DNA of 42,843 bases, taken from contig JASLOV010000063.1 in assembly GCA_030745285.1 (NCBI GenBank), positions 1-42,843 of the forward strand. Direction: 5' to 3'. This stretch comes from Dehalococcoidia bacterium. Lineage in GTDB: Bacteria; Chloroflexota; Dehalococcoidia; UBA2979. Both the position numbers and the translations under genes were made by a program. A model generated the notes under the pieces. It searched no databases. It was not told the origin of the DNA and saw nothing but the letters and a program-made list of their open reading frames with translations. This document shows, piece by piece, positions 18,615 through 32,280 of the stretch (position 1 is the stretch's first letter; every line of letters starts with the position of its first letter).

Positions 18615-18791
18615 ACGGTGTCGCGCCCCGGGCCGATTCTCATCTCTGAGGGGCGGTCGGGCTGCTCGCCTTCGGGATAGTCCATCCCAGGAACGGACAG
18701 ATCCCGCCGCCGGGCGGTCACGCGGCGGGCGGGAATGGACGCTGCCAGAGGGCGACGCCCCTTGGCACGTGACTTGCGACCCGTCCTCGGC

Positions 18792-21215
18792 ATGAACAGC
18801 CTCCTTCAAGATCTGCGATACGGCGTGCGGCTGCTCTGGCAGAACCCCGTCTTCACCGTCGTGACGCTGGCGACCCTGGCCCTGGGCATCGGTGCCACCA
18901 CAGCGATCTTCAGCGTCGTGAATGCCGTGCTGCTCCGGCCGTTGCCGTACGCCGAGCCGGACCGCCTGGTGCGGGTCTATTCCTTGACCGAGGGCGAGCG
19001 CTGGACCGCGTCGCCGCCGGACTTCGTCGATTGGCAAGAGTCTGACGCCTTCGACGCGATTGGCGCCTTCAACATGAATGCCTTCGCGCTCACGGGCGAC
19101 GGTCCGGCAGAGCAGGTGCAGGGTGCGGCGGCGCGCGCGGCGTTCTTCTCGGTGCTCGGCGTCTCACCGATGCTCGGCCGCACCTTCGTCGAGGCCGACG
19201 AGACCGCAGGGCAGGACCAGGCGGTCGTCCTCGGCCACGGCCTCTGGACGCGTCGCTTCGGTGGCGATGCCGAGATCGTCGGGAGCGACGTGACGCTCGA
19301 TGGCCGGAACCGCATCGTCGTGGGTGTGATGCCCGCCGGCTTCGAGTTTCCGAGAGGCGTCGAACTCTGGACGCCGCTGGCGTTCACCACGGACGACCTG
19401 ACGACCCAGCGCGGCGCGCACTACCTGACGGTGGTCGCCCGGCTCGGGGACGGCCGGTCGGTCGATCAGGCCGACGCGGCCATGCGGGCGCTTGCCGACA
19501 ACCTGGCCGCCGAGTACCCCGAGACGAACGAGGGATGGACCGCGACGGTGGTTCCGCTGGGCGAATCGATCGTGGGGGATCTCAGCAGCGTCCTCTGGGT
19601 GCTCGCCGGCGCCGTCGGGGTCGTCCTGCTCATCGCCTGCACGAACGTCGCGAGCCTCCAGCTCGTTCGGTCGTTCGGTCGCGAACGCGAGCTAGCCGTA
19701 CGCGCGGCGCTCGGCGCGTCGCGGCGGCGGCTGGTGCAAGCCCTGTTGTGCGAGAGTCTGGTGATCGGCCTGATCGGCGGGGCGACGGGCGTGCTCCTGG
19801 CCCAGTGGCTCATCGAGGTGCTGACGTTCCTCGCACCCACGGGAATCCCGAGGCTCGAGGAGACGCGGATCGACGGCACGGTGCTCGCCTTCACGGTCGG
19901 GCTGTCGATCCTCGCCGGCGGACTGTCGGGCGTCGTGCCGGCGGTCCAGGCTTCGCTCCCGACCGGCCTCGCCGAGCGGCTCAAGGAGACCGGCGGCATC
20001 CTGTCGAGCGACCCGGCCCGGCGGCGCAGCAAGGCCGCGCTCGTCGTGCTCGAGGTGGCGCTGGCCGTCGTCCTCGTCACCGCGACCGGCCTCCTCCTCA
20101 AGAGCTTCGTCCGGCTCCAGCAGGTCGACCCCGGGTTCGACCCCAGCGGCGTGCTTACCTTCAACGTGTCGCTGCCCGACGCGCGCTATCCCGAGCCGCC
20201 GGCGTCGCGAGAGTTCTTCGCGGAGTTGCTCAACCGGGTCGAGCAACTGCCGGGCGTACGCGGCGCGGCGGCGATCTTCGGGCTTCCGCTCAGCGGGTTC
20301 GGCTATCAGATCTCGGTGGAGAGCGTGGACGGCAGGAGCCGCCGGACCTCTGACGCGGAGCGCAGCGTCCAGGTGCGCGTCGTCACGCCGGGCTACTTCC
20401 GTCAGATGGCGATGCCGATCGTCCAGGGGCGCGGGTTCGAGGAGCGTGATGGCCCCGAGGCGCCGCAGGTGGTGGTCGTGAGTGAGTCGACGGCGCGCCT
20501 ACTCTGGCCCGGGACCGATCCGCTCGGGCACACCTTCTCGGTTGGCACGCGGCTTGGGCTCGGCGGCGAGCGCGTCGGCGGGGAAGTCGTCGGCATCGTG
20601 TCGGATGTCAAGGACCGCGGCCTCGCGGCCGACACCAGTCCGACCATCTATGCCGTGCACGCGCAGTTTCCCGAGAGCTTCATGAGTGTGACGGTTCGCA
20701 CCGACGTCGCGCCAGTGAGTCTCGTCGGGCCGATCCGCGCCGAGATGGCCGACCTGGACGCCGAGCTGCCGATGTTTCGGGTGCGGGCGATGACGGACTT
20801 CGTCGACGACGCCGTCGCCGAGCCCCGGTTCGTCATGCTGCTGGTGGCCTGGTTCGGCCTGTCAGCGATCGCTCTGGCGGCGATTGGCACCTACGGCGTC
20901 ATGGCCCATGCCGTCGGCCAGCGCCGGCGGGAGTTCGGCATCCGGTTGGCCCTGGGGGCGCGTGCGCAAGACATCGTATCGATCGTGCTGAGGCACGGCG
21001 TCGCGCTGGCGGCGCTCGGCGTCGTAGGTGGGCTCGCCGGCGCGCTCATGACGACCCGCCTGCTCCAGGGCCTGCTCTTCGGCGTCGCGCCGAACGACCC
21101 GGCGACGTTCGCCGCGGTCGCGGCGCTGCTGCTCGCGATCGGTGTGGCGGCGTCCTACCTGCCGGCGCGCCGGGCCACGCGCGTCGATCCGCTCGTGGCG
21201 CTGCGCGACGAGTGA
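18792..21215 (+). CDS. MacB-like duplicated FtsX permease of the ADOP (acidobacterial duplicated orphan permease) type
   Basis: ATG at 18792 gives the hallmark N-terminus MNSLLQDLRYGVRLLWQNPVFTVVTLATLALGIGATTAIFSVVNAVLLRPLPY. There are two FtsX-type 4-TM modules, each preceded by a large periplasmic domain. The C-terminus is ARRATRVDPLVALRDE. No ABC ATPase gene is adjacent. Confidence 0.9.
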   Translation: MNSLLQDLRYGVRLLWQNPVFTVVTLATLALGIGATTAIFSVVNAVLLRPLPYAEPDRLVRVYSLTEGERWTASPPDFVDWQESDAFDAIGAFNMNAFALTGDGPAEQVQGAAARAAFFSVLGVSPMLGRTFVEADETAGQDQAVVLGHGLWTRRFGGDAEIVGSDVTLDGRNRIVVGVMPAGFEFPRGVELWTPLAFTTDDLTTQRGAHYLTVVARLGDGRSVDQADAAMRALADNLAAEYPETNEGWTATVVPLGESIVGDLSSVLWVLAGAVGVVLLIACTNVASLQLVRSFGRERELAVRAALGASRRRLVQALLCESLVIGLIGGATGVLLAQWLIEVLTFLAPTGIPRLEETRIDGTVLAFTVGLSILAGGLSGVVPAVQASLPTGLAERLKETGGILSSDPARRRSKAALVVLEVALAVVLVTATGLLLKSFVRLQQVDPGFDPSGVLTFNVSLPDARYPEPPASREFFAELLNRVEQLPGVRGAAAIFGLPLSGFGYQISVESVDGRSRRTSDAERSVQVRVVTPGYFRQMAMPIVQGRGFEERDGPEAPQVVVVSESTARLLWPGTDPLGHTFSVGTRLGLGGERVGGEVVGIVSDVKDRGLAADTSPTIYAVHAQFPESFMSVTVRTDVAPVSLVGPIRAEMADLDAELPMFRVRAMTDFVDDAVAEPRFVMLLVAWFGLSAIALAAIGTYGVMAHAVGQRRREFGIRLALGARAQDIVSIVLRHGVALAALGVVGGLAGALMTTRLLQGLLFGVAPNDPATFAAVAALLLAIGVAASYLPARRATRVDPLVALRDE

Positions 21216-21388
21216 CGAGGTTCATCGCCGCGTGCTCAGCGCGCATCAGGCTCCCGATCTCGACGGCCTGATCCTGAAGGGTTCGATGACCCTGCCCATG
21301 CCTGTTCGGCTCCTCCGAGTCGCACCGGCGAACTCACTTCACCGTGATCTGGACCACCACGGAGGGGTAGAATTGGCGCGTGCCGCCG

Positions 21389-21408
21389 GGTATGAGCGTG
21401 GTCATACC
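21389..21408. promoter_or_regulatory. Inverted repeat GGTATGA-N6-TCATACC upstream of the ferredoxin/AOR operon (candidate operator)
   Basis: Read directly: GGTATGA at 21389-21395 and TCATACC at 21402-21408. It lies 35 nt before the GTG start at 21443 and about 16 nt downstream of a TAGAAT -10-like hexamer (21368-21373). Confidence 0.3.
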
Positions 21409-21442
21409 TTGGGCCCGGGTCGGCACTTATAAGGAAGACGTA

Positions 21443-21958
21443 GTGATTCAGTGCGATATCGGGCTCTGTGTCGGGTGCAGGATCTGCGAGGTGACCTGCA
21501 GTGCCGCGCACTTCGGTGCGGTCCTGCCAGCGCTCTCGCGCATCCGCGTCGCCAAGCTGGAAGAGATCGGCATCGACATGGCGGTCGCGTGCATCAGTTG
21601 CGCCGAGAAGCCCTGCCTCGTCTGTCCGACCGACGCGCTGGCGGTCGGGGAGCGGGGAGAGATCGTGCTCTCCGCCGAGTTGTGCACCGCGTGTCAGGAG
21701 TGCACCGACGCATGTCCGGTCGGCGCGGTCGGATTCTACGAGGACCATCCGCTCTTCTGCGATCTCTGTGACGGCGATGTCTCGTGCGTCTCGACGTGCC
21801 CGACCGACGCGCTGTCCTACGTGGACGAGTGCGGCGCGTCGCTGGAGGCATTTGCCGAGTCCGACGGGTGTCCGGCCGAGAAGCGCACCATCTACGTCGC
21901 GGTGCAGGGCGTGCCGATTCGTGAGAACTGGGCCGCCGGCCGGAGAGTCGATTCATGA
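21443..21958 (+). CDS. Polyferredoxin, 4x[4Fe-4S] (AorA/HybA-like electron-transfer subunit)
   Basis: Four Cys clusters: CVGCRICEVTC, CISCAEKPCLVCP, CTACQECTDACP and CDLCDGDVSCVSTCP. I prefer the GTG at 21443, which has AAGGAAG 6 nt upstream and gives (M)IQCDIGLCVGC. The ORF-track start at 21380 is the alternative. The stop overlaps the AOR start (ATGA). Confidence 0.8.
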   Translation: MIQCDIGLCVGCRICEVTCSAAHFGAVLPALSRIRVAKLEEIGIDMAVACISCAEKPCLVCPTDALAVGERGEIVLSAELCTACQECTDACPVGAVGFYEDHPLFCDLCDGDVSCVSTCPTDALSYVDECGASLEAFAESDGCPAEKRTIYVAVQGVPIRENWAAGRRVDS

Positions 21959-23751
21959 GCATCTGTCGCGGAACGGCTCTGCGCGTCGATCTCACGACCC
22001 AGGAGATCGTCAAGGGCGAGACTCCCGACGACGGCATCGGCGGACGGAGTTGGAACAGCCAGACACTCCTGCGCGAGTTGGCACCGGGCATCGATCCACT
22101 CGGTTCCGAGAACATCCTCTGCCTGTCGGTTGGCCCGTTGACGGGCAGCGAGTTGATCGGCAGCTGTCGCTTCATCGCGAGCGCGAAGAGCCCACTTACG
22201 GGCTTCCTGGGCGATTCCGGCGCGCGCGGCTTCTTCGCGCCCGAGCTGCGCTGGGCCGGAGTCGATCAGATCGTGCTCACGGGCGCGGCCGACCGATGGG
22301 TCTATCTGCTCATTGACGATGGCACGGCCGAGCTTCGAGACGCGTCGCATCTCGTCGGACGCGACATCACGGAGACGACCACCGACCTTCGTACCGAGTT
22401 GCACGACCCCGACCTGCAGGTGGCCGCCATCGGCCCCGCCGGAGAACACCTCGTCCGATACGCGATCATTTCCTGCAATCTGGCGCGTGCGGCCGGCCGG
22501 ACCGGCATGGGCGCCGTGATGGGGTCGAAGCGGCTGAAGGCGATCGCCGTTCGGGGCCGCCAGCCCGTGAAACCGGCCGATCCCGATCGGTTCCGGCGGG
22601 CCTGCGCGGCTCTCGCGGCGTCCATCGAGGGGCACCCCGAGTTCGAAGCCCGCCGACTGTACGGAACGACCCGGATCATGGACTCGCTGGCGGAGATGGG
22701 GGTGTTACCCGCGTATCATTTTCGCAGCGCCCACTTTGACGAGGTCGAGAAGGTCAACGGGCAGGCGCTGCGACGGGACCATGTCGTCAAGCCGAAGTCC
22801 TGCTACAACTGCAACATCTACTGCTCGCGGTACAACGTCACGGAGTACAACGAGGGTGAGGGCCCCGAGTACGAGGCGCAGGCCGGGTTCACCGTCAAGT
22901 GCGGGAACACCGACCTCGAGTTGGCCGTCGGCGTGTCGAATACGGTCAACCGGCTCGGGCTCGATTGCATCAGCACCGCCGAGGTCATCGCGTGGCTGAT
23001 GGAATGCCGCCACGAAGGGCTGATCACCGACGCGGACGTCGGCGGCATCGATCTCGGGTGGGGCTCGCGAGAAGCCCTGCTGCGACTGCCGGAGATGATC
23101 GCGCGGCGCGAAGGGATCGGAGACCTGCTCGCCGACGGCTCGCGACGCGCGGCCGAGGTCTTGGGGCCCGAGACCGCTAGACTGACCGCGGAGGTCAAGG
23201 GGCTCGAGCTGTTCTCAGCCGATCCGAGGGGGATCAAGGGGTACGGCCTGATGAACGCCGTGAACTCCCGGGGCGGCGACCACTACCGGGCGGAACCTTC
23301 GATCGAGTTGACGGGAGACGAAGCCCTCGCCATCCGACGGGTTGGCAATCCCGATGCGGCGCATGCCAAGAAGGAAGAGGGCAAGGGCGCGCTGGTCAAC
23401 TACGCCGAGCACCTGGGCATCCTCTCGGACAGCCTGACGATCTGCAAGAACATCTCGTGCTGCATGGACGTCGTCGACTTCGACCTCGCATCCGATGCCT
23501 ACTCCGGGCTCCTGGGCACGGAGGTGTCGGCAAGCCAGCTCTGGGACGTCTGCACCCAGGTCGGTCAGGCCGAGCGCGACTTCAACCTTCGAGAAGGGCT
23601 CCGACCGGACGACGACACGTTGCCGCGGCGCTTCGTGGAGTCCCCGATCCCCGATGGCCCGGCGGCGGGCACGACCATTGACATCGCGAGGCTGGTCAGC
23701 GATTACTACCGTGAGAAGGGATGGCCCGAGCCGCCACGAGGGGAGAGCTGA
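21955..23751 (+). CDS. aor: Aldehyde:ferredoxin oxidoreductase (AOR) family tungsto/molybdopterin enzyme
   Basis: The N-terminus TALRVDLTTQEI and AAGRTGMGAVMGSKRLKAIAVRG match the AFOR_N domain. CYNCNIYC (CxxCxxxC) plus a distal Cys in LTICKNISCC provide the [4Fe-4S] ligands. GPEYEA and SRGGDHYRAEP are pterin-binding motifs. Confidence 0.9.
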   Translation: MSICRGTALRVDLTTQEIVKGETPDDGIGGRSWNSQTLLRELAPGIDPLGSENILCLSVGPLTGSELIGSCRFIASAKSPLTGFLGDSGARGFFAPELRWAGVDQIVLTGAADRWVYLLIDDGTAELRDASHLVGRDITETTTDLRTELHDPDLQVAAIGPAGEHLVRYAIISCNLARAAGRTGMGAVMGSKRLKAIAVRGRQPVKPADPDRFRRACAALAASIEGHPEFEARRLYGTTRIMDSLAEMGVLPAYHFRSAHFDEVEKVNGQALRRDHVVKPKSCYNCNIYCSRYNVTEYNEGEGPEYEAQAGFTVKCGNTDLELAVGVSNTVNRLGLDCISTAEVIAWLMECRHEGLITDADVGGIDLGWGSREALLRLPEMIARREGIGDLLADGSRRAAEVLGPETARLTAEVKGLELFSADPRGIKGYGLMNAVNSRGGDHYRAEPSIELTGDEALAIRRVGNPDAAHAKKEEGKGALVNYAEHLGILSDSLTICKNISCCMDVVDFDLASDAYSGLLGTEVSASQLWDVCTQVGQAERDFNLREGLRPDDDTLPRRFVESPIPDGPAAGTTIDIARLVSDYYREKGWPEPPRGES

Positions 23752-24980
23752 TGAATGCACGAGAGCAGGATCGCAGGCGCTTCTTGAAGAGCGGCGCAGC
23801 GCTGGCCGGATTGGCGGTGGGCGGGACCCCGTCGGCATACGGCCAGCCGATGTCGAGAGATGTCTCCAGGATTCCTCCCTACGGCATGCGCTCGCGGTTC
23901 GAGACCTCGCACCGGGGTAGCGGGAGACTGCACTCGGGGCAGTCGCCGCTTCAAGATTCGGTGGGGATCATCACCCCGAACCCACTTCACTACGTGGTGA
24001 GTCATGGGGCCTGGTCGCCGGATATCGATCCGCAGGCACATCGTCTCCTGGTCGACGGCATGGTCGACCGTCCGCTGGTCTTCACGATGGACGAGTTGAA
24101 GCGCCTGCCGTCCGTCACGCGGACCCATTTCCTCATGTGCGCGGGCAGCAGCTACGTGACGCGCGGACCGAGGCGGAACGCGCGGACCGTTCAGGAGACC
24201 CACGGGTGGACGAGTTGCGCCGAATGGACCGGGGTGCCGCTCTCCATCGTGCTCGCTGAGGCGGGCGTGCAGGACAGGGCCAGCTGGGTCGTCGCGGAGG
24301 ACGTGACGCGGAAGTGGACGGTGAGCATCCCCCTGGCCAAGGCGATGGACGACACGGTGCTGGTCTACGGCCAGAACGGCGAGGCGATACGCCCCGAGCA
24401 GGGCTACCCGCTGCGGATGCTGGCCCCGGGCTTCGAGGGCACCCGTAGCACGAAGTGGTTGCGGCGAATCAAGGTCGTGGACGAGGCCTATCTCACCCGG
24501 TGGGAGATCACCGTCTACACGAACCTGATGCCGGACGGTAAGGCACGCTGGTTCCAGTTCGAGTTCGAACCGAATTCCGTGATCACCTTCCCGTCGGGCG
24601 AGCAACAGCTGCCGGGTCCAGGATTCTTCGAGATCACCGGCTTGGCGTGGTCCGGCGGCGGCGCCGTCCGCAGGGTGGAGGTGTCCGTCGACGGCGGTCG
24701 CACCTGGGCGGACGCGCAGATTCAGGACCCGGTGCATCGGATGGCACACACCCGGTTCCGGTTCCCTTGGCAGTGGCAGGGCGGCGAGGCGACGCTGCAG
24801 TCGCGCTGCACCGATGAGCGGGGGGACATCCAGCCATCGCTGGCCGAGTTGAACCAGATCTGGGGTGTGGACAACGAATACTGGACGACATCCACCAACC
24901 GGGTCCAGCACCTCAACGCCATTCAACCCTGGAAGGTCGATCGAGACGGGAGCGTTCGCAATGCGATATGGGAATCGTGA
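23751..24980 (+). CDS. Sulfite-oxidase-family molybdoenzyme, SoxC/SorA-like, Tat-exported
   Basis: The ATG at 23751 overlaps the AOR stop by 1 nt (TGATG). The Tat signal is MNAREQDRRRFLKSGAALAGLAVGG. LMCAGSS contains the Mo-ligand Cys. GYPLRMLAPGFEG is present, followed by a C-terminal dimerisation/Ig-like domain. Confidence 0.9.
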   Translation: MNAREQDRRRFLKSGAALAGLAVGGTPSAYGQPMSRDVSRIPPYGMRSRFETSHRGSGRLHSGQSPLQDSVGIITPNPLHYVVSHGAWSPDIDPQAHRLLVDGMVDRPLVFTMDELKRLPSVTRTHFLMCAGSSYVTRGPRRNARTVQETHGWTSCAEWTGVPLSIVLAEAGVQDRASWVVAEDVTRKWTVSIPLAKAMDDTVLVYGQNGEAIRPEQGYPLRMLAPGFEGTRSTKWLRRIKVVDEAYLTRWEITVYTNLMPDGKARWFQFEFEPNSVITFPSGEQQLPGPGFFEITGLAWSGGGAVRRVEVSVDGGRTWADAQIQDPVHRMAHTRFRFPWQWQGGEATLQSRCTDERGDIQPSLAELNQIWGVDNEYWTTSTNRVQHLNAIQPWKVDRDGSVRNAIWES

Positions 24981-25653
24981 CGTGATCGTGCCACTCGCCG
25001 TTGTGATGACCCTGGCCGCCAGCTCCGCGCTGGCGCAGGGACCCGCGTATGGACTGGGCAGGGCGCCCACAGCCGACGAGGTCAGTGCCTGGGGGATCAT
25101 CGTCGGTCCCTCCGGACAGGATCTGCCACCGGGGAGCGGCACCGCCGAGGACGGCGCGAGCATCTACGGCGCGAAGTGCGCCTACTGCCACGGTCCGACC
25201 GGTGCGGAGCCGTACATGTCTCGGAGACGAGAGCGGCCGTTCACGCCGGAGATGTACTGTTGCTTCCCGGCGCCACTGGTGGGAGGCGAGTCCTCGCTCA
25301 CGACCCTCATTCCCGTGAAGACCGTCGGAGCCTACTGGGCCTCGGCGACGACGCTGTGGGACTACATCGCGCGAGGGATGCCCCCGAACGAGAACTACCG
25401 GAACACGAGAGGGGGCTACGAGTTCGCCGAGCGAGTCAATGCGCAGGGCCCGCTCAGCGACGACGACGTCTACGCGCTCACGGCGTTCATCCTGTTTCAG
25501 AACGGCCTCGTCCAGGAGCGCGACGTCATGAACGCCGAGAGTCTGCCGAACGTCAAGATGCCTGGCCGTGACGTGATGATCCCCGCCGACCCGAACACGT
25601 GGTATCCGAAGCGGCAGGTCGATCCGCACGTCAGCCCGAACTCGCGGCCGTAG
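24961..25653 (+). CDS. Monohaem cytochrome c, SoxD/SorB-like partner subunit
   Basis: ATG at 24961 inside ORF 24865..25653. The signal peptide is MRYGNRDVIVPLAVVMTLAASSALAQG. The haem motif is CAYCH. KTVGAYWASATTLWDYIARGMP and DDDVYALTAFILFQNGLV resemble SoxD. It overlaps the upstream gene by 20 nt. Confidence 0.85.
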   Translation: MRYGNRDVIVPLAVVMTLAASSALAQGPAYGLGRAPTADEVSAWGIIVGPSGQDLPPGSGTAEDGASIYGAKCAYCHGPTGAEPYMSRRRERPFTPEMYCCFPAPLVGGESSLTTLIPVKTVGAYWASATTLWDYIARGMPPNENYRNTRGGYEFAERVNAQGPLSDDDVYALTAFILFQNGLVQERDVMNAESLPNVKMPGRDVMIPADPNTWYPKRQVDPHVSPNSRP

Positions 25654-25677: not shown

Positions 25678-28311
25678 TCAGGCGCCTTGCGCCGGGCCGG
25701 CCGACTCGGGACTCGGATGCGCCGCGGTCCTGGGCACGACGGTTGACGCGGGCAGTCTCAGGAATCGCTCGAGCACGCGCTGGAGATCCGGCACACGGAG
25801 CGGCTTGGAGAGGTAGTCGTCCATGCCGGCTTCCAGACACCCATCGCGATCGCCGGCCATGGCGTTCGCCGTCAGCGCCACGATCGGCGTGTGGATGCCA
25901 GGGGCCTCCTGCCGACGAATCTCGGCCGTGGCCTGAAACCCGTCCATTTCCGGCATCTGGCAGTCCATGAGCACGACGTCGTACGTCCGCGCGCTGAGCG
26001 CGTCCACCGCGTCCCGGCCGTTCGCGACGACGTCGGCACGATAGCCCAGCCGTTCGAGCGTGAGCACGATCACCTTCTGGTTGACGACGTTGTCCTCTGC
26101 CACCAGGATGCGGGACTTCGCCTGGGATTCGTGTTCAGCGAGATCGTGGCGCGTTACGAGCGGCGCGTCCGGGGTCGTCGTGACCTGCGCCAGCACGGTC
26201 TGGACGCACGCGAGGAGCTGGCGGCGCCTGACCGGCTTCGTCAAGTAGCCGGCGAATCCGGCCGCCCGGGCCTCGGCCGCCTGTCCGCGCTGCCCGCTGG
26301 AGGTCAGCAGAATGAGCGCACCGTTGGCGAACGCCGGCGCCTGGCGGAGCCGGCGTCCCAGCTCGAGGCCATCCATGCCGGGCATCATCATGTCGAGGAC
26401 CGCGATCGGATAGGCGACGCCGGCCTCGTGTGCGGCGGCCAGGTGAGCGAGCGCCGCCTCGCCTCCGATCTGGGCTTCGACCTGCATTCCGGCCGCGCCC
26501 AACTGCTGGGTGAGCAGCGTTCGATTCGTCGCGTTGTCGTCGACGACGAGGACGCGTACGCCCGCCAAGGCGGAGAGATCGACCGGCGCAGGGGCGGCGG
26601 TGCTCTCGGCCTTGGCCAGGCGCACGGTGAACCAGAACGTGCTGCCTTGTCCCTCGGCGCTCTCGACGCCGATGGTGCCGCCCATGAGCTCGACCAACTG
26701 CTTCGAGATGGCCAGGCCCAATCCGGTGCCGCCGTACTTCCGCGTCGTCGAGCCGTCGGCCTGCGAGAACGGCTGGAACAGCCGCGGCTGTGCCTCGGCC
26801 GGAATTCCGCATCCCGTGTCACGCACCTCCACGCGCAGGATGGCCGCGTCGGCCGAGTCGTCGTGCCGCGTCGCGCGCACGACGACCTCACCCTCGGCCG
26901 TGAACTTGACGGCGTTGCCCACGAGGTTCATGAGCACCTGCCGCAACCGGCCGGGATCGCCCGTCACCGTCACGGCGATGTTCGGATCGATGAGTGCCGT
27001 GAGCTCGACGCCCTTGTCGTGCGCGCGCGCCGCCAGCAGCTCGACGACGTCCTCGACCGTCGTGCGAAGATCGAACTCCCGCGACTCGATCGTGAGGCGA
27101 CCCGCCTCGATCTTCGAGAAGTCCAGGACGTCGTTGATGATCGTGAGCAGCGCTTCACCCGAGCCGCGGACGGTCTCGGCGTAGTCGCGCTGCTCGCGGT
27201 TGAGCGATGTTTCGAGCAGCAGGTCGGTCATACCGATGATCCCATTCATCGGCGTCCGGATCTCGTGGCTCATCATGGCGAGGAAGGCGCTCTTCGCCTG
27301 GGTCGCCTGTCGCAGCGCCTCCCGTTCGCGGAGCGTTTCGATCTGCTTCGTGTGGGCCCGCTCCACGGCCAGCCGCGCCATCAAGATCAGCAAGACCGAG
27401 ACGATCGTCAGCGCGGCGGACAGGTCGCGGAACCCGTCCAGCACGTCGGGCAACGGCAGCGCCGAGCGCAGCGCGTAGTCGAGGACGGGAATGAGGCCGA
27501 GCGCCGCGAAGATCAGCCAGGGGCGAGAGGCGGTCGTCGCCTCGTCCTCACCGGGCGCCGGATCCGCCGCCGTGGCCGGGGCGTCGTAGGCGGCCCACGC
27601 GTAGAAGAAGAACGGCAGGATCCAGGTGACGTCGTAGACGAAGACGCTGCGATAGACGCCCTGCCAGATGTCGATGTAGCTGATGGTCGACGTGACGAAG
27701 TAGACCAGGAGGCCGAACGCGAGGCGCCGGTAGGTCGACTCCCAGCGCGTGCCCCGCGTCGCGACCATGATGCCGGCCATGCCCGCCACGGCCAGCAGTT
27801 GCTGCAACTCTGAGAGCCACAGCAGCGACAACGACGCGCGATCCACGCTGTCCGGCGCGGCGACCAGGCTGGTGACGACGTGCGAGTAGAGGAAGCCGAC
27901 GAGCACGGCCAGTCCGGCGATGTCGACGGCCGTGGTGGGCGCCGCGGCGTCGCGGCTCCCGCGATGGGGCTGCGCGAGGAGCGCCAGCAGCGGCGTCGCG
28001 CCGCCGAAGAGCGCGAAGACCGCATGCCAGCCCAGCCAGGAAGTTTCGCGGGCAAGCAGAAACTCGTCGAGCGTCCAGCCGATAAGTCCAATGGAGGAGA
28101 CGGCGAGGCCGAAGGCGATCGTGGCCCAGAAGAGCCAATGACACCCGGACCACTCCCGGCGCCGATGGGCGATCACACCGATGCCCAGCAGCGGCGGGAC
28201 CAGCAGCGTGCCGCATCGGAACCAGAGCAGGGCGGCCGGGAGATCTCGGAGGAGCCAACCCACCGTCAGGTAGACGAGCGAGTAGGCGGCTCCCGCCGCA
28301 AGCCAGAGCAT
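25678..28311 (-). CDS. Hybrid sensor histidine kinase: polytopic membrane N-terminus, HisKA, HATPase_c, REC, REC
   Basis: There are about 8 hydrophobic helices in the first 300 aa. The H-box is [23 protein letters not shown]. The ATPase boxes are [16 protein letters not shown] and [11 protein letters not shown]. Receiver 1 contains LVVDDNATN...[12 protein letters not shown]...YLTKP. Receiver 2 contains LVAEDNVVN...[12 protein letters not shown]...LTANA...YLSKP. Confidence 0.9.
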
Positions 28312-28497
28312 TCACCAGGATTGTCGACCGGATCGCGCGAGGAAGACAGCAGATTGAGAGGCATCCTTGCACCGGATTCGCAGCATCCTGACAGCAGCTG
28401 ACACCAGCGGACAGAAGCGTTGGTGAGCGACGGCGTGTTCGAGGCCAGCGTCCGAACGTCGTATCATGACGTCCGAACCACGAGCCAGGGGGAAGCG

Positions 28498-28983
28498 GTG
28501 AGCGAACAAGACGACTCGGGCGAGGCCAGGCGCCTGGCCGACGAGGCGATGGCGCAGATTGCGGAGGTGGCGTCGCGGCCGCCACCGCCTCCGGCGGCCG
28601 AGGTGCGCGCTGGGACGAGACGGCGTGTGGCGCTCATCGGATTGGCCGTCGGTGTACCGACGCTTGCGTTCCTGCTGGTGCAGGATTTCGCCGTCGGCGG
28701 CGTACGGGCGTTGCTCCAGCCGCGCCTCCCCGAGGCCGAGCTTCGCCTGCAGATACTGAGCACGGTCAACGACCTCGTCATCGAGATCGATGCGTTCTAC
28801 GAGGACTACGGTGAGTTGCCCGAGAGCCTCGTGGAGGTGGCCTCGCCGTCTGCCGCCGGGTGGCGTTACACGCTCGTCGGGCGCGACAGGTATCGCGTCG
28901 AGCTCACGCAGGATGGGCAGTCGGTGACCTACGACTCGGCGGACGACGCCGACGAAGTGTTCGAGGAGGTACGGCAGCCATGA
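28498..28983 (+). CDS. Hypothetical single-pass membrane protein, Pro-rich N-terminus, translationally coupled to the prepilin gene
   Basis: Part of ORF 28420..28983, whose track start is a TTG. I favour the GTG at 28498 (GGGGGAAG upstream) or the ATG at 28549. The one TM helix is RRVALIGLAVGVPTLAFLLV. The stop overlaps the pilin ATG (ATGA at 28980-28983). Confidence 0.5.
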   Translation: MSEQDDSGEARRLADEAMAQIAEVASRPPPPPAAEVRAGTRRRVALIGLAVGVPTLAFLLVQDFAVGGVRALLQPRLPEAELRLQILSTVNDLVIEIDAFYEDYGELPESLVEVASPSAAGWRYTLVGRDRYRVELTQDGQSVTYDSADDADEVFEEVRQP

Positions 28984-29531
28984 CCGGTAGGAATCCTCGT
29001 CCGGCGCGGAGTGATCTCGGGTTCACGCTGATCGAACTGATGCTGGTTGTCACGATCATCGGCATCGTCGCGGCGATCGCGATTCCGGCCCTCGGCCGGG
29101 CGCGGATCGCGTCGTTCGAAACGGCGGCGATAGGAGCACTGCGGACATTGGGCAGCGCGCAGTCGGCCTTTGCGGCTTCCTGTAGCGGTGGCTACTTCGC
29201 GCCGTCCCTCGTCTGGCTGGGGCGTGCGCCCGCCGGTGGGGATGCATTCGTCCAGCCCGATCTGGTGGGGAACGGGCGACGCGTGGATCGGCAAGCCTAC
29301 CAGCTGCGATTCGCGGCCGGCCGGCGAGCCCGGAGCAGCCCGGCGGCGTGCAACGGGCTGCGGCCGGGCCGTGCCGTCGAGAGCTACTTTGTCGGCGCCA
29401 ACCCGCGGAACCGCCGGGAAGGTGCGAGGTACTTCGGGACCAACTCGAGCGGCACGATCTACCAGAGCACGCGCCGCGTACGGGTCACGCAGATGGGCGT
29501 GCCGCGGGCACCCGCCCGACCGATTCAGTAG
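28980..29531 (+). CDS. Type IV pilin / pseudopilin with prepilin-type N-terminal cleavage/methylation motif
   Basis: The leader MTGRNPRPARSDLG|FTLIELMLVVTIIGIVAAIAIP shows G|F cleavage and Glu+5. AAIGALRTLGSAQSAFA is typical of PilA-like pilins. Two Cys residues (ASCSGG, AACNG) could form a disulfide loop. Confidence 0.85.
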   Translation: MTGRNPRPARSDLGFTLIELMLVVTIIGIVAAIAIPALGRARIASFETAAIGALRTLGSAQSAFAASCSGGYFAPSLVWLGRAPAGGDAFVQPDLVGNGRRVDRQAYQLRFAAGRRARSSPAACNGLRPGRAVESYFVGANPRNRREGARYFGTNSSGTIYQSTRRVRVTQMGVPRAPARPIQ

Positions 29532-29549
29532 CGGCGCTGCAGGTGTGAC

Positions 29550-29918
29550 CTAGGAGGGTAACTTGGCCAGGAGCTGCCCGAGTTCGGTGACCTGCCGCTC
29601 GAGGTCCGCGTAGGCCTGCTCGGCCCTCGACAGGTCGGTGGCCCGACCGAACGATTCGAGCCGACGCGCCGTCTCGTAGGCGCCGTCCGTACCGAAGATG
29701 CCGACCGACCCCTTCAGGATGTGGGAGGTCCGGGCCACGGCCCCGGCATCCCGCCGCTCGACCGCGTCACGCACCGCCGAGAGCTGTGACGGGTAGGCTT
29801 GCAGAAACGCCTCACCGACCTGGCCCAACATCTCCGCGTCACCATCGAATCGGTCGATCAGCACGTCCATCGGCGTCTTCGCCTCTGTCGCGTGTTTCGT
29901 TCGACCCTGTCGGCCCAT
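29550..29918 (-). CDS. Stand-alone histidine phosphotransfer (Hpt) protein
   Basis: ARTSHILKGSVGIFG is the HxxKG phospho-His motif. DRFDGDAEMLGQVGEAFL is the usual Hpt N-terminal helix. The start is at ATG 29918 (122 aa) or ATG 29870 (106 aa). The longer track ORF (to 30095) is Arg-rich and unlikely to be coding. Confidence 0.8.
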   Translation of the reverse strand: MGRQGRTKHATEAKTPMDVLIDRFDGDAEMLGQVGEAFLQAYPSQLSAVRDAVERRDAGAVARTSHILKGSVGIFGTDGAYETARRLESFGRATDLSRAEQAYADLERQVTELGQLLAKLPS

Positions 29919-30111
29919 CAGGTGTGCCCGCTTCGTTCGGGCCACACACCCACCTGTCAAAGCAGGAACGGTGCCAGTGCGGCCCCGGCGACGATCGACG
30001 AAAGAACCAATGCTAGCAACTGTTTCGGTCACTGTTCTTCTTGGCTTGAGTACGGGAGCGGGCGGAAGCGCACACAAGCGGGCGCCCCGACGCACAGGTG
30101 TGCGCTCGGTC

Positions 30112-32280
30112 TCAGCCCCGCGCCCGACGGAGGGCCGCCTTGGCGCGCGCCAGGAACCGCCGGGGCTCGATCGGCTTCCGGATGTAGTCGTCGGCGCCGC
30201 GATCGATCAGCTGAGTCTCGGCGTCCGGGTCGGGGCTGCTCGTGAACACGATGATCGGCAGCCCCGCGGTTCCGACGGTCGCGCGGGCCCGCGCGAGGAC
30301 GCCCCAGCCATCCAGCCGCGGCATCTCGAGGTCCAAGATCATCAGCGAGTAGACCTCCTGCTCGAGGGCCAGGAGGGCGGTGACGCCATCGGCCGCCTCC
30401 GACACCTGGCAGCCTTCCCGTTCGAGTAGCGCCTTCGCGAACGTCCGATTCGTCGGGTCGTCGTCGACGACGAGGATGCGTGCGCCGTCCAGGGACGCCG
30501 TCGGAAGTCCAGCCGCCGAACTGGTCGTCGGATCGGCCGCGCGCGAGATCAGTTCCGTGGTCGATGACAGCCCGGCGTCGACGGGCTCCGTGCCCGGGCC
30601 GCCGACGACCCGCTCGATCTCTCCGAGCGTCGTCAGGCACTGCTGCTCCATGGCCAGGCCGACCTGGCGCAGCGTTCGCATCCCTTCCTTGACCGCCGCG
30701 GCTTCGAGATCGGTTGCGGTCGCCCCCGAGGCGATCAGCGTCTGGAGCGCCGGACTCATCATCAGGGTTTCGACGACGGGAAGTCGGCCGACGAACCCGG
30801 TGCCGTCGCACTGGTCGCACCCGGATACCCGCATCGTCGCGGTGACGCCAAAGAGTTGGCCGAGCCGTTGCTCGTCGTTCGAGAGGTCCCCGACAATCCG
30901 GACGCCGCACGTGGCGCAGACACGCCGGATCAGCCGCTGGGCCACGACGCCACGCACCGTGTCCACGAGCGCCGAGGGGTCGAGGCCCAGGTCGACCAGC
31001 CGGCGGACGGCGCTCGCGGCGTCGTTCGTATGCACCGTGGCCAGCACCAGGTGGCCCGTCAGACTCGCCTGGACGGCGATCTCCGCGGTCTCGGCGTCCC
31101 GGATCTCACCGACGAGGATGATGTCCGGATCCTGTCGGAGGATCGCGCGCAGCGCCGAGGCGAACGTCACGCCCTGCTTCGGGGCGACCTGCATCTGCGT
31201 CGCCGCGGGCAGCTCGTACTCGATCGGATCCTCCACTGTCATGATGTTGACGTCCTCGGTGGCCAGCTCCCACAACGCGGCGTAGAGCGTCGTCGTCTTG
31301 CCCGATCCGGTGGGGCCGGTGACGAGGATGATGCCCTGTCGTTCCTTCAAGAGCGTCCGGAGGCGCTCGAGCTCCGGGTCGGCAAGTCCCAGCGTGTCGA
31401 GGCGCGCTGAGGACGTCGGATCGAGGAGGCGGATGACGGCCTTCTCGGACCCGCGCGTCGGCACGGTGGAGATCCGCATGTCGAAGACGCGGTTGGCGAT
31501 CGCGAGGCTCGTCCGCCCATCGTGCGGTTTCAGGCGGTTCGACAGGTCGATATCGCTGAGCACCTTGATCCGGGACACGACCCGGTCCATGACCGGCAAC
31601 GGCAGCTGCATGTAGTGACTGAGCACGCCGTCGATCCTGAATCGAACGACACCGCCGCCTGCGCCGGGCTGGATGTGAATGTCGCTGGCTCGGCGCGCGA
31701 CGGCATCCCGGAAAATGAGGTTCGTCAGCTTGATGACGGGGCCGCCCTCGACCTCATCGGCCGTGACCTGGGCGGGGCCCTGGTCATCCACGTCACTGAC
31801 GAGCGTCTCGAGATCCTCGTCGACGTGGGCGAGCAGCGTCTCGACGGCGCGGTCGGGCGAGTACCGTGACTCGATGATCTTCGAGAGCGCCGCGGGCGGC
31901 GCGACCGCCATCACGGGCTTGCGACCCGACGCGAACGCGATGGCTTGCTCGGTGTCGAGGTTCAGCGGGTCGGCGCTCGCGACGTGCAGGTTGCGGTCGT
32001 CCTCACGAAGTGGGAAGACCTGGAACTGCTGGACGACGCTGCTCGGCAGGAGCCGCGTGGCAGCCGAACGCGCCGCCTCGAGATTGGCGACCTCGAGGTT
32101 GAGTGCGGTGGCAATCGACTCAGCCAGATCGGTCTGCGAGACGCCGCAGTGCCGTGAGACGGCGGTCCAGGCGTCGGCTGCCGGCGTCTTCGGTTCGACC
32201 GCCAGATGCTCCGCGTCCTGGAGTCGGGCGGTACGGGCGGCGCGAACGAGCCAGTGGACCGGTTCGGATTGGGGAGCCAT
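30112..32280 (-). CDS. PilB/GspE-class type IV pilus / type II secretion assembly ATPase fused to a C-terminal response-regulator receiver domain
   Basis: - GSPII_E N-domain: LLPSSVVQQFQVFPLREDDRNLHVASADPLN.
- Walker A: GPTGSGKTTT.
- Walker B/Asp box: DPDIILVGEIRD.
- His box: TGHLVLATVHTNDA.
- Tetracysteine: CATCG...GCDQCDGTG.
- Ser/Thr/Pro linker.
- REC (about 30115-30486): ILVVDDDPTN, LMILDLEMPRLDG, IIVFTSS, DYIRKP. Confidence 0.9.
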   Translation of the reverse strand: MAPQSEPVHWLVRAARTARLQDAEHLAVEPKTPAADAWTAVSRHCGVSQTDLAESIATALNLEVANLEAARSAATRLLPSSVVQQFQVFPLREDDRNLHVASADPLNLDTEQAIAFASGRKPVMAVAPPAALSKIIESRYSPDRAVETLLAHVDEDLETLVSDVDDQGPAQVTADEVEGGPVIKLTNLIFRDAVARRASDIHIQPGAGGGVVRFRIDGVLSHYMQLPLPVMDRVVSRIKVLSDIDLSNRLKPHDGRTSLAIANRVFDMRISTVPTRGSEKAVIRLLDPTSSARLDTLGLADPELERLRTLLKERQGIILVTGPTGSGKTTTLYAALWELATEDVNIMTVEDPIEYELPAATQMQVAPKQGVTFASALRAILRQDPDIILVGEIRDAETAEIAVQASLTGHLVLATVHTNDAASAVRRLVDLGLDPSALVDTVRGVVAQRLIRRVCATCGVRIVGDLSNDEQRLGQLFGVTATMRVSGCDQCDGTGFVGRLPVVETLMMSPALQTLIASGATATDLEAAAVKEGMRTLRQVGLAMEQQCLTTLGEIERVVGGPGTEPVDAGLSSTTELISRAADPTTSSAAGLPTASLDGARILVVDDDPTNRTFAKALLEREGCQVSEAADGVTALLALEQEVYSLMILDLEMPRLDGWGVLARARATVGTAGLPIIVFTSSPDPDAETQLIDRGADDYIRKPIEPRRFLARAKAALRRARG

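Follow-up and report, generated by a model that had tools for sequence, protein, structure and literature searches.

Does a tight operon that joins a cytoplasmic enzyme of the AOR family to an exported, SoxC-like molybdoenzyme encode one coupled redox system, or two systems that happen to be expressed together? This question is raised by positions 21443-25653 of contig JASLOV010000063.1 (assembly GCA_030745285.1, filed as Dehalococcoidia bacterium), whose 42,843 nucleotides form the stretch of DNA analysed here and are called the window below. Four overlapping open reading frames (ORFs) on the forward strand encode a polyferredoxin, the AOR-family enzyme, the SoxC-like enzyme and a SoxD-like cytochrome c. 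An initial annotation, made from the sequence, had read the arrangement as a possible new functional unit. We find that the locus is a real, lineage-specific operon fusion of two already known module types. The interpretation we consider probable is that two independent, portable redox modules were juxtaposed and are now co-expressed, with no new coupled system arising from the event. The four genes form a discrete unit:

21443-21958, forward strand: polyferredoxin (Fd), a WorS/AorA-like electron-transfer subunit of 171 amino acids (aa) with four cysteine motifs, 4x[4Fe-4S]
21955-23751, forward strand: AOR, a cytoplasmic AOR-family tungsten/molybdenum (W/Mo) bis-pyranopterin enzyme (WorL) of 598 aa, with domains PF02730 and PF01314
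23751-24980, forward strand: SoxC-like SUOX-fold molybdoenzyme of 409 aa, with the twin-arginine signal MNAREQDRRRFLK
24961-25653, forward strand: SoxD-like monohaem cytochrome c of 230 aa, with a Sec signal and one CAYCH motif

The gene identities, the discreteness of the unit and all three overlaps agree with what had been described. Fd starts at a GTG codon (21443) preceded by AAGGAAG and meets AOR in an ATGA at 21955-21958. AOR and SoxC share a TGATG at 23749-23753, with a GGAG Shine-Dalgarno sequence 5 nt upstream, and the SoxD ATG at 24961 precedes the SoxC stop codon (24978-24980), giving a 20-nt overlap. These junctions had been taken to imply stoichiometric co-expression, a step that we do not follow: about 9 of the 19 co-directional gene pairs in the window overlap (by longest-ORF calls). 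Since overlaps are common among such genes, they represent normal operon packing and no special evidence of stoichiometric coupling. GC content at third codon positions is identical across all four genes (0.85). The internal junctions leave no intergenic space, and the operon has only one conserved upstream region; from the overlaps and this single region, the four genes are probably co-transcribed.

The case for two separate modules is carried by their distribution. Orthologues of the window AOR, at 72-83% identity, were found at ~45 distinct loci in at least seven phyla, with hosts among Terriglobia and other Acidobacteriota, Gemmatimonadota, Phycisphaerae, Myxococcota, Anaerolineae, Zixibacteria and Marinimicrobia. 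Wherever upstream DNA was present, these loci carried an Fd gene with the same 4-nt overlap. No SoxC or SoxD gene lay near an AOR orthologue at any of the ~45 loci outside the window and its sister population (described below), and a genome-wide search (E<=1e-60) found a SoxC-like gene in none of the 38 other genomes carrying this AOR. In the sister's order, the same SoxC query gave matches in 63 of 301 genomes. The recurrent neighbours of the orthologous AORs were instead a TIGR04076 protein, an amino-acid permease and an aldehyde dehydrogenase, with no sulfur genes among them; in the closest outgroup (AOR identity 83%), Fd and AOR are followed by a trypsin-like peptidase.

The SoxC-like gene gave the mirror image. 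Its relatives, at 49-76% identity, occupy ~100 loci and are nearly always followed by an overlapping SoxD-like gene where the contig continues, and none of these loci has an AOR or Fd gene alongside. The other neighbours are heterogeneous, the largest neighbour cluster comprising 9 loci. Within the sister's order (301 genomes), orthologues of AOR and of SoxC are each confined to the two sister genomes, the next best matches being at 46% and 59% identity, respectively. Because the ATGA and 20-nt overlaps recur within each module elsewhere, they are inherited, and the TGATG junction alone is lineage-specific. The AOR-SoxCD linkage is confined to one genus-level lineage of marine Acidobacteria. 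Mining gene neighbourhoods for co-occurrence of AOR and SoxCD returned no case outside the window and the sister population, and a literature search on an AOR-SoxC link found nothing relevant. The narrow lineage, the 38 AOR genomes without SoxC and the ~100 SoxCD loci without AOR argue against the view that the linkage marks a new coupled system.

A caveat raised at the outset was that the linkage might be unique to this contig, through chance adjacency or misassembly. It proved apt as regards the limited spread, as the linkage is restricted to one genus-level lineage, and wrong as regards the contig: the same four genes, with the same order and overlaps, recur in a sister population and in several assemblies. 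Two GTDB species genomes belong to this population, Acidobacteria bacterium NP133 (G099) and UBA2161 (G100), as do independent contigs from NCBI, ENA, JGI and Tara (L006, L011, L033, L053-L056, L106, L107); the NCBI source name for the sister SoxC is Vicinamibacterales bacterium. Identity between window and sister is 88% at the nucleotide level and, for the proteins, 80-84% (Fd), 92% (AOR), 97% (SoxC) and 89% (SoxD). All four genes are under purifying selection, with ratios of nonsynonymous to synonymous substitution (dN/dS) against the sister species of 0.35 for Fd, 0.11 for AOR, 0.08 for SoxC and 0.14 for SoxD.

The wider synteny is also kept, with an Omp85 gene upstream of the operon in both window and sister and, downstream, a 64-aa ORF and genes for a metallo-beta-lactamase-fold protein, an alcohol dehydrogenase and an acetyl-CoA synthetase. 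The immediate flanks differ. Upstream, the sister has a DUF4399 gene where the window has a permease gene, and downstream, the window has a 6.6-kb kinase-Hpt-pilin-PilB/receiver block (25678-32280) inserted after SoxD. In the window, the unit is thus bordered by the following features:

18735-21215, forward strand: upstream flank, gene for a MacB/FtsX-type (ADOP-type) permease
21355-21442, forward strand: 5' control region conserved with the sister species, comprising the palindrome GTATGAgCGtGGTCATAC at 21390-21407 and the AAGGAAG Shine-Dalgarno sequence
25678-28311, reverse strand: downstream flank, convergent gene for a hybrid histidine kinase

The window contig (C63 of bin G000) is itself a contaminant, mis-binned in its metagenome-assembled genome (MAG). 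The rpoB of the bin is 81-86% identical to that of its genus mates and 55% identical to that of G099 and G100; the acetyl-CoA synthetase of the window is 93% identical to its counterparts in G099 and G100 and 35-37% identical to those of the bin's genus mates. Across 398 kb of G099, ~3.6 kb matches other G000 contigs at >=80% identity, chiefly 3.2 kb on C197. Locus L011, by contrast, spans 13.8 kb, of which 12.4 kb aligns with the window at 88%. Since C63 is foreign to its bin, genome context was taken from G099 and G100. As a side observation, C63 and the small contig C197 are the sole G000 contigs with substantial DNA matches to the sister genome at ~88%.

What, then, are the two modules? 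The first, Fd and AOR, was described as cytoplasmic, and we agree: neither translation shows a signal peptide or a transmembrane segment, and the first cluster motif of Fd begins right at its N-terminus, with no RR motif. Fd matches Fer4 families. In the PDB, AorA of Aromatoleum aromaticum is its best match (8c0z_C, E 2.9e-25), and the WOR5 and 9mqx small subunits come next. AOR scores 223 bits against PF02730 (AFOR_N) and 342 bits against PF01314 (AFOR_C). Placement of both AOR and SoxC was by hidden Markov model and PDB scores, which for AOR were 354 bits to 1aor (P. furiosus AOR) and to 9mqx (A. mobile WOR1), the two closest structures, 284 to AorB, 197 to FOR, 180 to BamB and 162 to WOR5. 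Aligned to 1aor, the cluster ligands Cys288, Cys291, Cys295 and Cys494, as well as Glu313 and His448 (P. furiosus AOR numbering), are all conserved. A C-terminal extension of AOR that might have been a scar of fusion was considered and rejected, as the length of the tail that follows the conserved KGW differs within the clade, from 0 to 12 residues.

More than 4,000 AOR-family enzymes have been classified, and in this scheme the Class II WORs, the second most common class (40 of 92 clades), consist of a WorL and a four-cluster WorS and use ferredoxin (PMC13328260). The window pair fits an ordinary Class II WOR. Like P. furiosus WOR5/ASOR and C. bescii GOR, it combines a 4x[4Fe-4S] small subunit with an AFOR_N/AFOR_C large subunit in which the ligands and both active-site residues are kept, and it has neither a flavin adenine dinucleotide (FAD) subunit nor a Tat signal. 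The initial annotation had measured the pair against the AorABC enzyme of A. aromaticum, a Class III WOR (8c0z; PMC6365974, PMC10413684), and regarded an FAD/NAD subunit as missing and replaced in the operon by SoxCD. AorABC does supply the best match to Fd and a clear one to AOR, but no AorC-type FAD/NAD subunit lies beside the genes in the window or at any of the ~45 orthologous loci. As the pair fits the FAD-free architecture of Class II, no subunit is missing and SoxCD replaces none. ModA is present in the sister genomes; the metal of the enzyme would be tungsten or molybdenum.

E. coli ydhYVWXUT, a Class V WOR, had been offered as a loose precedent, given that it too places an AOR-family protein in an operon encoding Tat-dependent redox proteins. 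The likeness does not extend further. In the ydh operon, the Tat-dependent and membrane components are parts of the WOR complex, whereas the exported enzyme of the window is an unrelated SUOX-family module and Fd has no Tat signal. The window AOR reaches 152 bits against the YdhV model (PRK09849), for which the cut-off is 868.

The clade to which the window AOR belongs is, unlike the characterised Class II WORs, uncharacterised, and its hosts are soil and marine phyla, most of them aerobic. Outside the window lineage, its members nearly always have as a neighbour a small TIGR04076-family protein with conserved cysteines, which stands beside Fd-AOR in 39 loci from at least six phyla (AOR identity 72-79%). 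It occurs in a single (92 aa) or a tandem (211 aa) form, for example at L002:5843-6478 and L001:8793-9071. TIGR04076, Fd and AOR together form a very widespread, uncharacterised three-gene module, found mostly in aerobic bacteria. The window lineage differs in this respect: the partner was not found in the window, in the 83% relative or in either sister genome, and a positive control in two other genomes worked.

The second module most closely resembles the SoxCD sulfane dehydrogenase of Paracoccus pantotrophus (2xts), which is the best solved match for both subunits. The SoxC-like protein contains PF00174 and PF03404, scores 247 bits against 2xts_A and narrowly passes the NCBI SoxC model (TIGR04555; 441 bits, cut-off 420). 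It fails the models for SorA (148 against 600 bits), SorT (120 against 570 bits) and MsrP. For the SoxD-like protein, 2xts_B is the sole significant PDB match (E 8.6e-25). As in P. pantotrophus, SoxC carries a Tat signal, its gene is overlapped by a downstream cytochrome gene and the molybdenum-ligand cysteine is kept; the window cytochrome differs in having a single haem domain. Export of both subunits is as had been proposed, with a Tat signal on SoxC and a Sec signal on SoxD. The concern that the former might be lost on revision of the start codon was unfounded, since 11 relatives have N-termini (MN/K...RRxFLK) that agree with a start at 23751, with the twin-arginine motif, DRRRFLK in the window, at an equal distance from the start.

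Aligned with SoxC of P. pantotrophus and SorA of Starkeya, the SoxC-like protein keeps the molybdenum-ligand cysteine and the equivalents of His57 and Tyr236. The window protein, like most close relatives, has valine in place of an active-site arginine shared by SoxC and SorA (Arg55 in SorA), at a position where the alignment could be shifted. Given this replacement, sulfite may not be the substrate of the clade, or not its sole one. The window SoxC and its relatives (P0125-P0145) form a free-standing SoxCD-like clade with Val, Ile or Thr at the SorA Arg55 position and Tyr at the SorA Arg109 position; this clade is large, rich in Acidobacteria and found in soil and marine samples.

No other sox genes had been noticed in the window, and the search at genome scale extends this: SoxB (TIGR04486) and SoxY (PF13501) were found in none of G099, G100 and G000, with controls matched, in MAGs that are incomplete and in which SoxAX was not searched for. 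As SoxB and SoxY were not found in the sister genomes, a classical role on SoxY-bound sulfur is unlikely, and free sulfite becomes the default substrate, to be read as a probable one. In this, the pair would resemble SorAB and SorT, each a periplasmic SUOX-fold molybdenum enzyme with a dedicated c-type cytochrome, although its sequence falls far under the cut-offs of both families.

How is the fused unit controlled? Conservation with the sister extends over just the ~90 nt that precede the Fd start, palindrome GTATGAgCGtGGTCATAC included, and the DNA further upstream is unrelated. We searched G099 and G100 for the palindrome class GTATGA(C/T)-N4-(G/A)TCATAC (pattern GTATGA-N6-TCATAC, with at most one mismatch); each genome had 10-11 sites, and the reversed control gave 0-1. 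The unconstrained flanking positions were biased to C and G, giving TATGAC-N4-GTCATA. The sites are mostly intergenic, 5' of mixed catabolic genes that include two thiamine pyrophosphate (TPP) enzymes, two S15 peptidases, FAD enzymes, a CoA ligase and an alcohol dehydrogenase. A gene for a Crp-family regulator without an FNR-type cysteine cluster, at G099:C40:81280-81969, has one of the sites 31 nt upstream. This pattern suggests that the operon belongs to a broad Crp-type regulon, with the regulator as the putative ligand of the palindrome. A scan of 21.0-26.0 kb for consensus promoters and terminators was empty; the consensus is uninformative for a high-GC organism.

The idea that the palindrome is an ancestral part of the AOR module was rejected, since it was not found 5' of Fd-AOR in other phyla, with one degenerate exception. 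This exception is the closest outgroup (AOR 83%, no SoxCD), in which a degenerate palindrome, TCTGACGGCCGTCACAC, lies ~100 nt upstream of the Fd gene (L203:178-198). The degenerate copy hints that the operator may have come along with the AOR module.

Several observations weigh against reading the operon as a simple juxtaposition. Despite rearrangement on either side, the four-gene unit is unbroken in two to three species, and the new TGATG junction is tidy, has its own Shine-Dalgarno sequence and is conserved in the sister; both points would fit selection for co-expression. The AOR and SUOX families, moreover, both need a nucleotide-free pterin cofactor (MPT), which makes a regulatory rationale possible. 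YdhV, for its part, carries bis-Mo-MPT (PMC9103625). The shared cofactor, or else a global signal, could account for the operon as a matter of regulatory economy, with both modules co-expressed under one Crp-family regulator and no substrate in common. The single conserved upstream region, the ~10 palindrome sites per sister genome, among them the one before the Crp-family gene, and the degenerate palindrome of the 83% relative are all in keeping with this. However, the rest of the regulon is catabolic and diverse, its annotated members including no cofactor-biosynthesis genes, no moa or moe genes lie near the operon among the genes of the window, and the pairing of regulator and site is our inference; we regard the explanation as unlikely. 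The two modules could also serve one pathway, in which a sulfur-bearing substrate such as an organosulfonate yields an aldehyde for AOR in the cytoplasm and sulfite that is exported to the SoxCD-like enzyme in the periplasm. A Class II WOR acting on aliphatic sulfonates exists, P. furiosus ASOR/WOR5, which shows that WorLS enzymes can use such compounds (PMC13328260), and by analogy a sulfonate link to the operon would not be absurd. Co-directional, overlapping genes conserved in the sister behind one control region would suit such a pathway, as would the lack of SoxB and SoxY hits in the sister genomes, which makes free sulfite the likeliest substrate. A TPP enzyme also adjoins SoxC relatives in L057 and G099:C45, and the operon palindrome precedes that TPP gene too. 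Yet no sulfoacetaldehyde acetyltransferase (Xsc), the enzyme for which a search had been advised, scored above the cut-off in the sister genomes (best 293 against 676 bits), and the TPP enzymes found next to different SoxC relatives share only 27% identity and are not Xsc. AOR is nearer to P. furiosus AOR and 9mqx than to WOR5/ASOR (354 against 162 bits), its orthologues in 38 other genomes work without a SoxC-like gene and among neighbours that are not sulfur genes, and the window genes beside the operon include no sulfonate transporter and no desulfonating gene. A common pathway is, on this evidence, quite unlikely.

Two further explanations are effectively excluded. In a trans-membrane redox loop, electrons from aldehyde and sulfite would be joined through a membrane partner encoded elsewhere. 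Its sole support is that cytoplasmic and periplasmic redox enzymes are co-located in one operon; there is no membrane subunit in or adjoining the operon in the window or in the sister species, both modules are electron donors, so that the acceptor arm is absent, and each module occurs alone in all other genomes, all of which makes the loop highly improbable. That the adjacency is a chimeric join produced by assembly or binning is next to impossible. The contig is indeed mis-binned in its MAG, but mis-binning bears on the bin and not on the contig's internal continuity, and the same four-gene order and junctions are present in a sister species at 88% nucleotide identity and in independent NCBI, ENA, JGI and Tara assemblies.

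We therefore return to the juxtaposition of two independent modules, which would work as follows. In the cytoplasm, the Class II W/Mo WorL would oxidise an aldehyde to an acid and pass electrons from its [4Fe-4S] cluster through the four WorS clusters to a soluble ferredoxin-type acceptor. In the periplasm, the SoxCD-like enzyme, whose molybdenum-pterin subunit would be exported folded by Tat, would oxidise sulfite or a related small substrate and deliver electrons through the monohaem cytochrome c to the aerobic respiratory chain. Lying in separate compartments without a membrane link, the modules would exchange no electrons, and metabolic coupling between them is not expected. In the ancestor of one genus of marine, Vicinamibacterales-like Acidobacteria, the SoxCD pair would have landed directly behind the AOR pair, and it would now be expressed from the promoter region of the AOR module, with its Crp-family-type operator.

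A more ambitious version of the fusion is adaptive: a Crp-family regulator would place on one transcript the enzymes for a cytoplasmic aldehyde and for external sulfite or a related oxyanion, both of them toxic and derived from one sulfur compound, the partner being a non-canonical SoxCD-like enzyme without the usual active-site arginine. We consider this proposal, taken with its non-canonical partner, speculative and decidedly unlikely. If true, it would represent a new catabolic logic in which a tungsten-type enzyme is tied to periplasmic sulfur oxidation in an aerobe; a functional fusion would link tungsten-type aldehyde chemistry with periplasmic sulfur oxidation in abundant marine Acidobacteria. 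Read as a juxtaposition, the locus illustrates how easily portable redox cassettes are packed into a seemingly coupled operon, a caution for annotation by guilt by association. Some by-products of the analysis are perhaps more useful than the operon itself: the widespread, highly conserved and uncharacterised AOR clade with its constant TIGR04076 partner, the free-standing SoxCD-like clade with neither a Sox system nor the canonical arginine, and the Crp-type regulon motif of the sister genomes.

A minor observation concerns the TPP enzymes encountered near SoxC relatives. The one beside the 76% relative was considered as an Xsc and rejected (99 bits against a cut-off of 676). Apparent twin-arginine signals were seen on TPP enzymes at L057:4425-6329 (RREFLKGAAVSAAS), at L197:4376-6580, which has a Pfam TAT_signal match, and at L193:7361-9319. 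Two of these three adjoin SoxC relatives, and export of TPP enzymes would be unusual.

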